Below, one piece after another: positions 6,040 to 19,477 of a DNA stretch of 64,000 nucleotides. Source of the stretch: Elusimicrobiales bacterium (GTDB lineage: Bacteria > Elusimicrobiota > Elusimicrobia > Elusimicrobiales > UBA9959); assembly GCA_035353595.1 (NCBI GenBank), contig DAOPZW010000001.1, forward strand, positions 1,099-65,098, read 5' to 3'. A program made the translations under genes and the position numbers. The notes beneath the pieces were generated by a model, which saw only the letters and a program-made list of their open reading frames with translations, did no database searches and was not told the origin of the DNA. Every line of letters starts with the position of its first letter. Position 1 is the first letter of the stretch.

Positions 6040-6067
6040 GCGCGGTTGAGGCGGGCGGCGCAAAAAG

Positions 6068-6099
6068 AGGCGCCCCGTAAAAACGGGGCGCCTGTTTTT
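6068..6099. terminator. Bidirectional rho-independent terminator (repeat copy)
   Basis: AGGCGCCCCG-taaaaa-CGGGGCGCCT stem-loop, flanked by an A-run on one side and a T-run on the other. Confidence 0.7.
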
Positions 6100-6117
6100 A
6101 TTTCGCCGGGTCTTGCG

Positions 6118-6538
6118 TCAGACGCCGAAGGCGATGGCGCCGGCATCGTGCGTCGGGACTGAGGGATGGGCCGCCAGACCGTCGATTATCGCGTTCAGCG
6201 CGGGGCTGGGGCGCATGGCTTTGGCGGTCTTTGCCTGGTCCGGGTGGTAGTAGCCGCCCATGTCCACGGGTTTGCCCTGGGCGCCTATCAATTCCCCGTT
6301 TATCCGGGCCTCGTTCTCCTCCAGCTGCCTGGCCGTCTTGGAGAACTTCTCCTTCAGCGCGGCGTCCTTGGACTGCGCGGCCAGCGCCTGCGCCCAGTAC
6401 AGGGCCAGGTAGAAATGGCTGCCGCGGTTGTCTATTTCTCCCACCGCGCGCGCGGGGGATTTATTGGTGTCCAAGAATTTGGCTATGGCCAAGTCGAGCG
6501 TCTCGGCCAGCAGCAGGGCTTTGTCGTTCTTGAAGGTG
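6118..6538 (-). pseudogene. icd: Displaced 3' fragment of isocitrate dehydrogenase (last ~140 codons)
   Basis: The translation from '...[30 protein letters not shown]' to the stop matches the intact icd C-terminus (19057..) except for 2 residues. The N-terminal 15 aa of ORF 6118..6582 is unrelated junction sequence. Confidence 0.9.
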
Positions 6539-6985
6539 CGTTTGTATTGGTACATAATGCGTATTCTGCAAAAATGGCGCACTATCTGCTCGTATTTAAG
6601 AGCAGCGCCGCAGGTAGGGGGAATCTGGAAACGCGGGAAAGTGCGCTTTTAAAGAGGGAAGGCGAACCGGCGCGGGTTGGAATCCGACAGCAGGTCGATG
6701 TGCTTAAGCGGAGATCGGCCACGGCGGGCATTTTGAGCCGTTCCCGAGCGATATATATAGGGGGGATTTTTGGGGAGTCTCGCCGGTGTCCCTTAAAAAC
6801 AAAGAGGAGTTCCCGCTATGGAAAACCAGGATTCGGTAGTAAAAATCTATAAGTATTAGGGCTTACTGATCCCGATAGGCTTTAAGAAATAAGTATAGCG
6901 GCTATATTAAGCGGGACCCGGTAGCTATAGCTTGTGTTTTGTAGTAAGCGGCCAACTGGCCCGATTTAGAGCAGGAGGATGCCGT

Positions 6986-7135
6986 ATGAAGATGAACGTA
7001 TCATTAAGTGCCACGGAGCTTTCAGCGCTTCTGGTTGTTGTTGCTGTGGTGGTCGTTTATATCGTTGCCCCCGAGCGGGCAGACGTTGTGGCGCGGGTTT
7101 GGGTGGACGTGCTGCTCTTGGCCAGGACAAGGTAG
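6986..7135 (+). CDS. 49-aa hydrophobic small protein
   Basis: Strong RBS AGGAGG 8 nt before the ATG at 6986. MKMNVSLSATELSALLVVVAVVVVYIVAPERADVVARVWVDVLLLARTR has one predicted TM helix. Confidence 0.4.
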   Translation: MKMNVSLSATELSALLVVVAVVVVYIVAPERADVVARVWVDVLLLARTR

Positions 7136-7181
7136 CATGAATTGTTGTAGGCCGGGTGGTAACGCCTGTGTGGAAGGCGAA

Positions 7182-7361
7182 CTAGTTGTTCCTGTCTCTT
7201 TTTTGAGAAGAACGGGCCTCGAAACTTTTACCTTGTGTTAATGTGGCTTTCCATCCTTTAGGCGGCGGCCATGGTACACCCCATTCAGAAAGTTGCTTTT
7301 TCGTCCATCCTCCGTTGGCGGTACGAGCTTTTTCGATTTCATCAAGTGAAGGAATTTTCAT
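7182..7361 (-). CDS. 59-aa hypothetical protein with a 'GGWTKKQLSEWGVPWPPPKGWK' motif
   Basis: GAGGTGG RBS 6 nt before the internal ATG at 7361. The Trp/Pro-rich motif looks like a conserved small domain that I cannot name. Confidence 0.4.
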   Translation of the reverse strand: MKIPSLDEIEKARTANGGWTKKQLSEWGVPWPPPKGWKATLTQGKSFEARSSQKRDRNN

Positions 7362-7431
7362 AAAAACCACCTCGGAGCCCTTCATAAACGGATTTCCGCC
7401 TGAAAGGCGAACTACAGCTAAAGATGCGAGT

Positions 7432-17165: not shown

Positions 17166-18053
17166 CTATGTTGAGAGTGCGGCCAGAGTTTTCCGACCCT
17201 TAGCTCTTAAACTGAAAAGATACTTGCACATGGCGCAAGGCGCTGAATGCTGTGGGGAGAACTTGGGGGAGGGAATCTTAAAATACTCTATCAATTCCTG
17301 GAAAGTTTTTTTGCGCATGATAGAATAGAACTCGCTGCCGAGATGTCCTGCCAACGTCGGATGCACATATCCTCTCCCATCCCCGTCCAATGCAAGATGG
17401 GAACAACATGTGGTAAAACCTTCGCCGGGAAGATAAATCAGTTTATTGTTGTTTGGGCATTTTTTCTGCAGGACGTCCGCGTCAAAGCTCGGGTAAATGT
17501 GCTGTAGTTTGTTCTTTTGCGCCGCACCTATAGGGTGTATCGGCTGAACACCGACCGGGAAGTCCCCCATCTTTTTAAGATCTTTGATAAGCAGAAGGTC
17601 CATTGGGGTCTGGACCGTCATCAAGACATTAAAGCTTCTGCCGCTCCGCCTGCATGCAGAATAAAGATTTGACAGGTTCGCCTCTTTCTGGAACGCTTTA
17701 TGGAAGCGGTCGTATGATAACTGGACGCCGGAAAGCGCCCTAAACTCGTTTAGGACCGTTAAGGCGGCCGCTTCGGTCCTGGCGAAGTGCCCGTTAGTGG
17801 TTATCTTTATTTGCGGGAAGGGCGCGTATTTGATTCCGGAGAGAATCGTGTTTATCTTGTCTATGTACAATGTCGGTTCACCGCCGACAAAAAGCAGCGA
17901 CTGGAACTGATATGTATTTATTGCTCTGATTAGAAGATGGATCTCTTCTTCGGTAAGACTTACCTGGCGCTTTTCGCTGACCCCGCAATGCGCACAGTTG
18001 AAATTACATCTATATCCTACAAGTATACTGCAGCTGGTCGGCCTATTTCGCAT
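17166..18053 (-). CDS. Radical SAM enzyme (short, with C-terminal Cys cluster)
   Basis: 'YRCNFNCAHC' is the CxxxCxxC motif. 'GGEPTL' SAM-binding motif. C-terminal Cys residues ('TTCCSH', 'CAMC') suggest an auxiliary cluster. Confidence 0.8.
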   Translation of the reverse strand: MRNRPTSCSILVGYRCNFNCAHCGVSEKRQVSLTEEEIHLLIRAINTYQFQSLLFVGGEPTLYIDKINTILSGIKYAPFPQIKITTNGHFARTEAAALTVLNEFRALSGVQLSYDRFHKAFQKEANLSNLYSACRRSGRSFNVLMTVQTPMDLLLIKDLKKMGDFPVGVQPIHPIGAAQKNKLQHIYPSFDADVLQKKCPNNNKLIYLPGEGFTTCCSHLALDGDGRGYVHPTLAGHLGSEFYSIMRKKTFQELIEYFKIPSPKFSPQHSAPCAMCKYLFSLRAKGRKTLAALST

Positions 18054-18134
18054 AAAATAGCTGGCATTACCAGGATATCGTATAAAAAGACGGCGGGGTC
18101 AGCAAGCATGGGACAGTTGATGTCTAGACCTGAG

Positions 18135-18338
18135 TTATCCGACTTTTTTAGTATCCCCGGCAGCATCAAATACCGGAGATTCACACACCAGAACCCCGGT
18201 ATCAGAAATCTTGGCAACCGAAAATAATTTCGTTCTTTCGCCTATAGAAAGCGTCTGAACATACTGCATAGCCTGGGTAGTGGAAAAAATCCCTACGGAA
18301 ACCAGGAAGGCCGCTATCACTTTATCTTTGTTCGTCAT
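18135..18338 (-). CDS. 67-aa secreted small protein, candidate radical-SAM substrate
   Basis: AAGGGGA RBS 6 nt before the ATG. MTNKDKVIAAFLVSVGIFSTTQA|MQYV... has a signal or leader with an AxA-like site. The predicted mature ~44 aa has one Cys. It is the first gene of the operon, directly upstream of the rSAM gene. Confidence 0.5.
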   Translation of the reverse strand: MTNKDKVIAAFLVSVGIFSTTQAMQYVQTLSIGERTKLFSVAKISDTGVLVCESPVFDAAGDTKKVG

Positions 18339-18361
18339 TTGTATTCCCCTTAACTCCTAAC

Positions 18362-18390
18362 ATTCTGCCATTTTCAGCGCGGCCTTACAA
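18362..18390 (-). promoter_or_regulatory. Possible sigma-70-type promoter TTGTAA-17-CAGAAT for the peptide/rSAM operon
   Basis: Read on the minus strand. 17-nt spacer. The -10 element ends ~23 nt before the ATG at 18338. Preceded by an A/T-rich hairpin plus T-run (18381..18426) that could insulate it from read-through. Confidence 0.3.
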
Positions 18391-18677
18391 AGAAAAAAGG
18401 AAAAGCAAATTTTGATTTTGCTTTCCCTGGATGCGCCGGATTAAGGTCCGACCGTGGATACCCGGGGGCCAATTCCCCCGATTACAAGGAAACTACGATT
18501 AGAGTTTAGCTGACTTAGGTTGCGCCCGGAAGTGCCGTTGGGCCTGGTGGGTTCTAGGCCCTGCCTTCCCCGCAGTTGAATGACGCCATTACTGGTTCTG
18601 CTTCTTTGCAGTTTTCCGCAAGGCCGAGGTTGTTGGCGCGGGCCTTACCGCCGCAGGCGGTACAATGGTGACCGTAA

Positions 18678-18941
18678 ATGGGCCCGAAGAATTCGCACTG
18701 CGTTGTGCGGCTGGGCATCTTCGACGGCGAGTTCCACTGGCACAAGCACGACGCGGAAGACGAACTCTTCTACGTGCTGGAAGGCAGACTGCTGCTGGAC
18801 CTGGAGGGCCAAACCCTGGAACTGCTGCCCAACCAGGGCTACACCGTCCCCAGGACCGTGCTGCACCGCACCCGCGCCCGGGAAAAAACGGTGGTGCTGA
18901 TGGTGGAAAAGAACACCGTAAACCCCAAAGGCGACAACTGA
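18678..18941 (+). CDS. Cupin-domain protein, probably N-terminally truncated or degraded
   Basis: 'GEFHWHKHDAEDELFYVLEGRLLLDLEG...VPRTVLHR' is a cupin_2 core. Only 87 aa. A stop sits immediately upstream in frame, and an N-terminal-like 'NGPEEFAL' occurs in another frame. Confidence 0.5.
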   Translation: MGPKNSHCVVRLGIFDGEFHWHKHDAEDELFYVLEGRLLLDLEGQTLELLPNQGYTVPRTVLHRTRAREKTVVLMVEKNTVNPKGDN

Positions 18942-18994
18942 GAAACAAAAGGGCCCCTGCGGCTTGTCTTATGTTTGCCGCAGGCCGGCGCAGT

Positions 18995-19477
18995 CGGCGC
19001 AAAAAGAGGCGCCCCGTAAAAACGGGGCGCCTGTTGTTATTTCGCCGGGGCTTGCGTCAGACGCCGAAGGCGATGGCGCCGGCATCGTGCGCCGGGACTG
19101 AGGGATGGGCCGCCAGACCGTCGATTATCGCGTTCAGCGCGGGGCTGGGGCGCATGGCTTTGGCGGTCTTTGCCTGGTCCGGGTGGTAGTAGCCGCCCAT
19201 GTCCACGGGTTTGCCCTGGGCGCCTATCAATTCCCCGTTTATCCGGGCCTCGTTCTCCTCCAGCTGCCTGGCCGTCTTGGAGAACTTCTCCTTCAGCGCG
19301 GCGTCCTTGGACTGCGCGGCCAGCGCCTGCGCCCAGTACAGGGCCAGGTAGAAATGGCTGCCGCGGTTGTCTATTTCTCCCACCGTGCGCGCGGGGGATT
19401 TATTGGTGTCCAGGAATTTTGCGATGGCCAGGTCGAGCGTCTCGGCCAGCAGCAGGGCTTTGTCGTTCTTGAAGGTG
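18995..19477. repeat. Right copy of the 483-bp direct repeat (terminator plus 3' end of intact icd)
   Basis: See 6056..6538. Confidence 0.9.
19001..19032 (-). terminator. icd rho-independent terminator
   Basis: Same GC-rich stem-loop as 6068..6093. On the minus strand it is followed by CTTTTTG. Confidence 0.7.

Follow-up and report, generated by a model that had tools for sequence, protein, structure and literature searches.

F-prime and R-prime plasmids, Hfr strains and lambda dgal are familiar cases in which a piece of chromosome, captured by aberrant excision, recombines with the chromosome by means of host recombination, reversibly and with no integrase of the element's own, and in which the direct repeats that result comprise exactly the stretch held in common. 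Cis-mobilizable elements (CIMEs) are non-autonomous, integrase-less islands flanked by the attachment (att) repeats that belong to the integrase of a cognate integrative and conjugative element (ICE). In Escherichia coli, the element e14 at icd is accompanied by a duplicated segment of 163 bp and the orphan fragment icdC, and its excision gives a chimeric functional icd (PMC6379469, PMC13626634). In this study, we analyzed an island of similar layout in 64,000 nucleotides of DNA from an Elusimicrobiales bacterium (the window, by which we mean that whole stretch), in which 12.5 kb of accessory DNA lies between two direct repeats of the 3' end of icd, the gene for a monomeric NADP-isocitrate dehydrogenase (IDH). 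The original prediction, made from the letters of the window alone, had read the locus as an e14-like integration scar without an integrase. We found that the island is a discrete, foreign and strain-variable unit, and the topology described in that prediction stands as well; its implication of site-specific integration in the manner of e14 or phage 21 does not. On balance, we favor the explanation that a cargo module of a plasmid, joined to the icd 3' end of a donor as its handle, is moved by host homologous recombination.

The window is part of contig NODE_203 (69,927 nt, 5.9x coverage) of the ENA assembly ERZ795026, which was made with SPAdes, and the NCBI entry for the contig is a third-party annotation (TPA) metagenome-assembled genome (MAG) named 'Elusimicrobiales bacterium'. 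Near-identical contigs in other assemblies were retrieved via exact-protein look-ups. The Pfam and recombinase scan of the window covered most of its open reading frames (ORFs) of at least 100 amino acids (aa).

The icd repeats and the junction contigs

The direct repeats at 6056-6538 and 18995-19477 align at a constant offset of 12,939 over 483 bp with 98.3% identity and no gaps. Where about eight mismatches had been counted by hand there are exactly eight (6097, 6111, 6153, 6447, 6474, 6481, 6484 and 6492 in left-copy numbering), which leave a perfectly identical core of 293 bp at 6154-6446. Homology ends sharply at both limits, as just 4-8 of 20 bases match outside them, which is chance level. 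The further claim that each repeat comprises the last ~140 codons of icd and its terminator, with the right copy completing the gene and the left one an orphan, agrees with the Pfam matches and the hairpins: the ORF at 19057-21333 (minus strand) matches the monomeric IDH family PF03971 over profile positions 1-734 of 734 with 1278 bits, the left fragment covers only positions 612-734, and an 11-bp-stem bidirectional terminator is present in each copy (6068-6093 and 19007-19032). Both copies have a host-like G+C content of 63-64%. Their alleles are readily told apart, the left copy having TTT at 6097/6111/6153 and CAGTA at 6447-6492 and the right copy GGC and TGTGG at the corresponding positions.

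The DNA between the repeats is of a different composition, as the original prediction had suggested from its AT-richness. G+C content is 51.9% in the island (6539-18662), 62.1% in the left flank and 60.4% on the right side, and the tetranucleotide correlation with the host is 0.76-0.83 within the island and 0.95-0.98 outside it. Between the repeat copies there are 8 differences in 483 positions (1.7%), whereas between samples the island shows none over ~10.8 kb and the flank one over 6.3 kb. The duplication was therefore not made in situ, and it follows that one copy was brought in with the island from a diverged lineage. Tandem duplication is likewise ruled out, since the sequences outside the two copies differ (a lipoprotein flank versus a truncated cupin gene, cupin').

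Contigs for all four junction types, attB, attP, attL and attR, were recovered. In the window, attL reads flank-TTT-...-CAGTA-island left and attR reads island right-GGC-...-TGTGG-icd 5'. Contig L086, from the NCBI MAG GCA_964633735.1, is 99.9% identical to the window and represents the empty icd site that the original prediction had proposed to seek in relatives: it joins 6538 directly to 19478, has one repeat copy that is crossed without a break and reads flank-TTT...TGTGG-icd 5' (attB). The reciprocal junction, island right-GGC...CAGTA-island left (attP), is found in L089 from JGI 3300010352, which holds one 483-bp copy and island DNA 100% identical to that of the window. L089 is circular-looking, with a length of 13,066 nt that equals 12,939 plus a k-mer overlap of 127, although its last 1.8 kb was not read, and L098, a chromosomal flank contig of the same sample, stops in the core. 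In addition, L091 (JGI 3300025867) has attR; L185, assembled with MEGAHIT, has attL with both flanks spanned but a different mosaic (TTC, and A at 6337); and L087 (Logan) has attL reading flank-TTT-...-A(6337)-CAGTA and stops at 6538. Integrated junctions come from four other samples and from three other assemblers besides the SPAdes of the window. Four contigs (L083, L084, L090 and L098) are broken off within the 293-bp core.

The distribution of the repeat alleles among these contigs is the one expected of a reciprocal exchange within the repeat. With the caveat that short reads were threaded through it, the allele switch lies within 6153-6447 in the window, L086 and L089, within 6111-6153 in L185 and never within 6493-6538; in every case the exchange falls within the homologous block, which extends for at least 90 bp to either side of it. 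Further polymorphisms occur in the repeat at 6211 and 6337. Four linkages of a junction to a single-nucleotide polymorphism (SNP) each fall within read length and are robust.

The closest icd in a collection of species-representative genomes is that of Elusimicrobia GWD2_63_28 (82% aa identity), which has no flank gene in common with the window, so that genome offers no empty-site test. No match to a 36-mer of the repeat core was found in a scan of metagenome DNA, in a collection that appears to be without this species. The plasmid and phage collections had no match for the 193-aa protein of the island or for 6539-8013. The only tRNA gene in the window is a tRNA-Cys at 63422, so there is no tRNA target at the island.

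Island limits and a plasmid-like family

The left junction, 6538/6539, is located inside a recombinase gene, between codons 6 and 7. Because of that position and because it has only 1 nt of microhomology, this junction is, as judged from its sequence, an illegitimate join and not a conservative att exchange. The part of the recombinase gene that remains is recognizable by its upstream region: 6539-6667 is 72-89% identical to the corresponding region in ~40 loci and contains, at 6556-6600, a covarying inverted repeat around a TAGAAT-like box. The fusion ORF of 145 aa formed at the junction (Table 1) keeps this recombinase promoter region upstream of it, and is annotated by NCBI as isocitrate dehydrogenase (HNW42862.1). 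No trace of the recombinase body beyond the first six codons was found in the whole window by tblastn with the recombinase of contig L099, and a reading of the six-frame translations of 6539-7440 and 18330-19000 gave the same result. The integrase remnants that the original prediction had thought to seek at the island ends therefore amount to six codons and an upstream region at the left, with no recombinase body, and the island is without an integrase because the gene is cut off at codon 6. The ends that had been described as ORF-free are not empty either, the left one holding the recombinase promoter region and six codons and the right one a riboswitch and a conserved motif of 45 nt.

Two candidate recombination sites near the left junction were rejected. 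Recombinase codons 7-14 and icd codons 619-626 are alike at 18 of 22 positions, but this patch is out of frame and 2 nt off the register of the junction, for which reason we do not take it as an att core; it may be due to chance or may have aided illegitimate pairing. Manual comparison with the published dif consensus gave 6547-6574 as the best stretch, which departs from the consensus at 7 of 28 positions.

At the right end, homology to the plasmid family described below stops at 18662, inside the 45-nt motif, whose stems covary across loci. The motif is cut short in the window, as its relatives have ~40 further conserved nt past 18662 (~85 nt in full). The family has 32 occurrences of it, all on the same strand as the recombinase; in 20 loci its distance upstream of that gene is 1.8-8.6 kb. 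Many family contigs start with the motif, which would be accounted for if co-occurring elements have it in common. In the window, the motif and the recombinase start at 6555 are on the same strand and bound colinear cargo as they do in the family, so both limits of the island cut through conserved plasmid elements. Beyond the motif, the GC-rich segment 18663-18994 and the right repeat copy together make up 815 bp of chromosome-like DNA, comprising the icd 3' end, its terminator and the convergent cupin', whose 121-aa relative is at least 90% identical by clustering.

The plasmid-like family came to light through the 193-aa island protein, which has four homologues among 5.8 billion proteins. 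Three of the four homologue contigs (L099, L102 and L103) are colinear with the island. All three have the YefM-YoeB genes and the gene for the 193-aa protein, and the histidine kinase, the 60-aa ORF and the sigma-54 regulator of the island are also present in L099 and L102. The DNA identity of L099 to the island is 78-80% over colinear blocks and 89% over window positions 6667-6541. Exactly where the window changes to the icd fragment, each of the three contigs has a 174-aa recombinase of family PF00589, which consists of an Xer-like catalytic domain only and starts M(AQ/AT)YQYKREPLT. A metagenome scan with this recombinase produced 130 relatives, from which 80 loci were kept; these are 63-99% identical, most of them 87-99%. 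The start codon in the family sits in the covarying inverted repeat around the TAGAAT box. Of 59 recombinase copies, 34 have ParA within 600 nt downstream, in many cases with iteron-like repeats before it, and a RepA_C-like gene is present in 19 recombinase loci. In L105, whose recombinase is 99% identical to that of L099, the gene order is recombinase, ParA, a 107-aa ORF and RepA_C. Two recombinase copies were seen on one contig. Neither icd nor cupin was found near the recombinase, within up to 10 kb, in any of the 80 loci (0/80).

Since ParA and RepA follow the recombinase and icd is near it in none of the 80 loci, these gene neighborhoods assign it to plasmid backbones and not to an element that targets icd, and it plausibly serves as the multimer resolvase of the plasmid. 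The G+C content of the island (51.9%) is near the family median of 51%. We consider it somewhat better supported than not that the island would be an accessory, or cargo, segment of this plasmid family from environmental metagenomes, for the members of which (L099, L102, L103 and L105-L184) no description was found in the literature searched.

Proposed mechanism and rival explanations

The explanation that we favor would begin in a donor lineage ~1.7% diverged from the present one, where a plasmid of this family would have become joined to the chromosome next to icd-cupin. Next, by aberrant excision or a homology-facilitated event, recombinase codon 6/7 would have been joined illegitimately to icd codon ~619, much as lambda dgal or F-prime plasmids are formed. 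This would have captured 815 bp of host DNA in a defective molecule, which would have kept the cargo and lost the recombinase body, ParA and RepA, with chromosome-like DNA in place of the plasmid backbone. The 483-bp icd segment would be the only recombination handle left to such an element. Recombination of RecA type between this handle and the chromosomal icd would insert the 12,939-bp circle in Campbell fashion, so that a single crossover would give the window arrangement with its two direct repeats and an icd that is always intact, and the reverse crossover would give an empty site (L086) and a circle (L089). Three parts of this account are inferences: the crossover would be carried out by host recombination and not by the recombinase, the circle would exist as a molecule, and the 815 bp would have been acquired illegitimately in the donor. 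Homologous recombination or gene conversion would be expected to give the two-sided homology at the exchange points, the switch point of L185 and the polymorphisms at 6211 and 6337, which are not predicted for an integrase with a fixed core. That both the integrated and the excised state may be real is favored by the integrated junctions from four other samples, by the unbroken passage of L086 through the repeat and by L089, which closes on itself in a sample whose flank contig L098 stops in the core.

Several points weigh against this explanation. The core of 293 bp is longer than the assembler k (127 or 141), and the threading of attL/attR versus attB/attP through it is arbitrary. As the reciprocal alleles of L086 and L089 follow from the assembly graph either way, they are no independent proof of excision, and the excised forms, known from contigs, are putative. 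The circle is without a recognizable replication gene that would account for its persistence or for its transfer between cells. The homology ends a few nt past the terminator, which looks 'designed' in the manner of an attP that replaces a 3' end, and such a repeat end would also fit an ancestral site-specific element. Lastly, no donor genome with the order icd-terminator-cupin was found, and the only full-length cupin relative (L104) adjoins another gene and not icd.

Chief among the alternatives, although we regard it as unlikely, is an e14-like element that integrated site-specifically in icd with a replacement 3' end and then lost its integrase by a deletion, which would have taken away the P-arm and the body of the recombinase gene and reached icd codon ~619 in the displaced host fragment. 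On this view all of the left copy (TTT and CAGTA) would be from the host and all of the right copy (GGC and TGTGG) from the element, and later homologous recombination would have produced L086 and L089; the allele data fit this too. The topology is also identical to that of e14, including the terminator carried with the replacement end, and the remnant of the recombinase abuts the orphan fragment, in the place expected of an integrase. However, icd or cupin accompanies the recombinase in 0 of 80 loci, the recombinase is usually found ahead of ParA and RepA, a position that suits a plasmid resolvase, and the other boundary (18662/18663) also cuts a conserved plasmid element. This alternative needs two kinds of event where the favored explanation needs one, and no phage genes were found. 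In addition, E. coli Icd belongs to the dimeric family PF00180, whereas the target of the island is the monomeric IDH of PF03971, a different family. Taken with the 1-nt microhomology of the left junction and the variable switch point, these results argue against the e14-type mechanism implied by the original prediction.

More doubtful is a one-step origin, in which homology-facilitated illegitimate recombination (HFIR) of linear donor DNA, with no circle, made a fixed insertion that can be lost by repeat-mediated deletion. One end of the donor DNA would be homologous within icd and the other would be the illegitimate join of recombinase codon 6 to icd codon 619, with 483 bp duplicated. HFIR is an established route for foreign DNA (PMC3240628), and the derivation of the repeat copies from two lineages agrees with it, as does a junction with 1 nt of microhomology beside an out-of-register patch of 18/22 similarity. 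Contigs of attP type are not predicted by such a route, however, and L089 consists of the island, one repeat and exactly k = 127. It also presupposes a donor that already had icd-terminator-cupin'-island in contiguity.

We think it improbable that the linkage is an assembly artefact, in which one state only would be real (a free circle and an empty chromosome, or the integrated form) and the rest mis-threaded through the core. The length of the core relative to k, the four contigs that break in it and the coverage of the window contig, just 5.9x, are all in keeping with such mis-threading. Against this, integrated junctions were recovered from four other samples (attL in the MEGAHIT contig L185 and the Logan contig L087, attR in the JGI contig L091) and both are present in the SPAdes window; L086 crosses the repeat unbroken, the four junction-plus-SNP linkages are robust, and a circle without rep or par genes is unlikely as the sole form. 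Least probable of all is a satellite mobilized in trans by the Xer-like recombinase of a resident plasmid acting on the inverted repeat at 6556-6600 or the motif at 18618-18662, since, although both elements are retained at the island ends and the recombinase family is abundant, with several copies on some contigs, the observed exchange is inside the icd repeat and at neither element, the inverted repeat and the motif are unrelated in sequence, the motif is truncated and no such plasmid is linked to this genome.

Returning to the origin by recombination between a plasmid and the chromosome, we may tentatively go a step further and suggest that the island represents an integrase-free and replication-free 'homology-handle' element, which would have the 3' end of an essential gene and its terminator as its only recombination function and would shuttle by means of host RecA. 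Selection or repeated conversion would then keep the handle ~98% identical to the host gene, and the target would never be disrupted. Possibly, the conserved motif and the Xer-like recombinase delimit a slot for exchangeable cargo in a widespread, undescribed plasmid family.

Cargo, significance and comparison with known systems

The cargo (Table 1) includes the functions listed in the original prediction, namely a toxin-antitoxin pair, a CPBP protease, a peptide/radical SAM operon and a signalling module, and the Pfam matches to YoeB, Phd/YefM, CPBP (Rce1-like) protease, radical SAM, transglutaminase/TPR, sigma-54 response regulator and histidine kinase bear it out. The signalling module (10472..14289) has 74-82% protein identity to modules in L099, L102 and L151. 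A regulator of the same type is encoded in the chromosome flank at 1592-3157 (minus strand), where a sigma-54-dependent response regulator followed by a 59-aa ORF is paralogous to the island pair at 10472-12137 (plus strand); the related regulators of L099 and L102 match the flank regulator at 66-68% DNA identity, and the flank pair adjoins a 359-aa protein with only a Sigma54_DBD domain (3311-4390, plus strand). The 193-aa protein has, by eye, two hydrophobic N-terminal segments and CxxC...CxxC motifs. A 54%-identical homologue of it in L100 lies after CTD7, MC3 and LmuB_C (Lamassu-like) genes, a neighborhood that hints at a role in defence or conflict.

On the minus strand, 18422-18492 matches the full model of the 2'-dG-II purine riboswitch aptamer (RF03165) with 82.2 bits, the gathering score being 60. 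A terminator-like hairpin overlaps the aptamer at 18398-18428, and ~85 nt separate it from the downstream 67-aa ORF at the head of the radical SAM/transglutaminase-TPR gene string. The surrounding region, 18393-18513, is ~89% conserved in the plasmid-family loci L124, L151 and L128. This riboswitch class is known mainly from environmental sequences (PMC6847200).

Table 1. Features of the island, its repeats and the adjoining icd gene (window coordinates)
Feature	Position	Strand	Remarks
Left repeat copy	6056..6538	-	Orphan icd 3' end, 139 codons and stop; terminator hairpin 6068-6093
145-aa fusion ORF (MYQYKR/TFKNDK...)	6118..6555	-	6 recombinase codons in frame with icd codons ~619-758
Recombinase remnant	6539..6667	-	Start codon, 6 codons, ~110 nt of conserved upstream region
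49-aa ORF	6986-7135	+	Small ORF
67-aa ORF	7182-7385	-	Motif GGWTKKQLSEWGVPWPPPKGWK; also adjoins recombinase in L112
193-aa protein	7432..8013	-	No family match; after YoeB in L099, L102, L103
YoeB (YefM-YoeB type II toxin-antitoxin pair)	8038-8304	-	Pfam
YefM (YefM-YoeB type II toxin-antitoxin pair)	8298-8597	-	Pfam
CPBP/Rce1-like membrane protease	8836-9570	-	Pfam
216-aa protein	9697-10347	-	By eye: hydrophobic N-terminus, Gly-rich tail
Sigma-54-dependent response regulator	10472-11953	+	Pfam; signalling module
60-aa ORF	11955-12137	+	Signalling module
Hybrid histidine kinase	12157-14289	-	Pfam; signalling module
Gene string	14283..18338	-	The five genes in the next four rows
214-aa and 180-aa proteins	within 14283..18338	-	No family match
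Transglutaminase-TPR protein	15718-17154	-	Pfam
Radical SAM protein	17166-18053	-	Best match YydG-type epimerase, under cutoff
67-aa ORF	18135-18338	-	Heads the gene string
45-nt conserved motif	18618..18662	-	Hairpin TACCGCC-TGC-GGCGGTA and AAGGCC...GGCCTT
GC-rich segment, 332 bp	18663..18994	+	60.2% G+C; truncated cupin ORF
N-terminally truncated cupin ORF, 87 aa	18678-18941	+	Without the first 34 codons of the 121-aa same-cluster relative
Right repeat copy	18995..19477	-	Completes icd; terminator hairpin 19007-19032; alleles GGC/TGTGG
Intact monomeric NADP-IDH gene (icd), 758 aa	19057..21333	-	PF03971, 1278 bits

Genes for mobility were as scarce as the original prediction had stated. No intact integrase, excisionase or transfer gene, and no PF00589 or serine recombinase, was detected in the island or in the scanned ORFs of the window, where the only mobile-element gene found was an IS3-type transposase (34755-35633), ~15 kb from the island. 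Scans of the unknown island proteins against PHROGs, PADLOC and NCBIfam gave only generic radical SAM matches under the cutoff (viperin-like or YydG-like) and weak PHROG matches, the latter to families of unknown or unrelated function; in the PHROGs scan of ten island proteins there was no functional phage family, and the phage collection had no match. No Rep or Par gene was found on the 12.9-kb circle, unlike relatives such as L105, and a search for iterons or an origin at 6500-7500 found only short repeats at chance level.

Outside the island, a second atypical patch at 35-40 kb has 52.9% G+C and a tetranucleotide correlation of r = 0.77 to the host. It starts at the IS3-type transposase (rve), extends over 34755-39053, encodes an M6 peptidase and a UPF0164/TPR protein, and is probably another acquired segment. 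The window also encodes a 2218-aa Peptidase_M64/Fib_succ_major protein (24113-30769, minus strand) and a second radical SAM/SPASM gene (60112-61221, plus strand) that adjoins a gene for a redoxin-DUF3738 protein (61228-63240, plus strand).

These results indicate that no dedicated integrase is needed for a scar of e14 type to form, in which an island separates an intact gene from an orphan 3' fragment. Given an origin in recombination between a plasmid and the chromosome, annotators should not take such repeats as a phage-type att site. The recovery from metagenomes of contigs for all four junction types of an element in an uncultured phylum makes reversible, RecA-type mobility of plasmid cargo directly testable. 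Our analyses have also brought out an abundant plasmid family, undescribed in the literature searched, that is marked by the 174-aa Xer-like recombinase and the structured motif and has one cargo operon that would be under the control of a 2'-dG-II riboswitch.

Like e14 and phage 21 in E. coli icd, the island occupies a site at the 3' end of the gene and is flanked by a duplicated 3' segment, with the intact gene on one side and an orphan fragment at the far end. However, e14 has an integrase, an excisionase and phage genes, whereas the island has a six-codon recombinase stump and no phage genes that we could find. The duplicated segment is 483 bp at 98.3% identity, compared with 163 bp in e14, and in place of the fixed short core at the 5' edge that characterizes e14-type elements there is two-sided homology with a variable switch point.

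The likeness to F-prime plasmids is closer in mechanism. The segment present twice in the window is found once, with exactly the same limits, in the circular-looking contig L089, a match to be read with the caveats of graph threading and of the 1.8 kb at the contig end that was not read. The exchange point varies within the homology, as the mosaics of the window, L185 and L087 show, and has at least 90 bp of it to either side. Unlike F-prime and Hfr, the island circle is without replication, partition and transfer genes and is not a maintained episome. Its handle, moreover, is only 483 bp and is placed so that the target gene is never disrupted, and the role of RecA would be by analogy.

To its plasmid family, the island is linked by colinear cargo, the recombinase upstream region, the 45-nt motif, the riboswitch region and a similar G+C content, although the copy in the window is chromosomal and is without the recombinase body, ParA and RepA. 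With CIMEs, it shares the character of a non-autonomous island between direct repeats that has no recombination or transfer module, but its 483-bp repeats come from a housekeeping gene, and a cognate integrase targeting icd is not known and was not detected. It differs from the integrative mobile elements exploiting Xer/dif (IMEX) in being integrated in icd and not in dif. We class it as a genomic island of plasmid origin that is without an integrase and is flanked by repeats of the 3' end of a housekeeping gene. The processes that underlie it are already known from other systems; what the case adds is a clean natural example sampled in all four junction types, together with a plasmid family for which no description was found.

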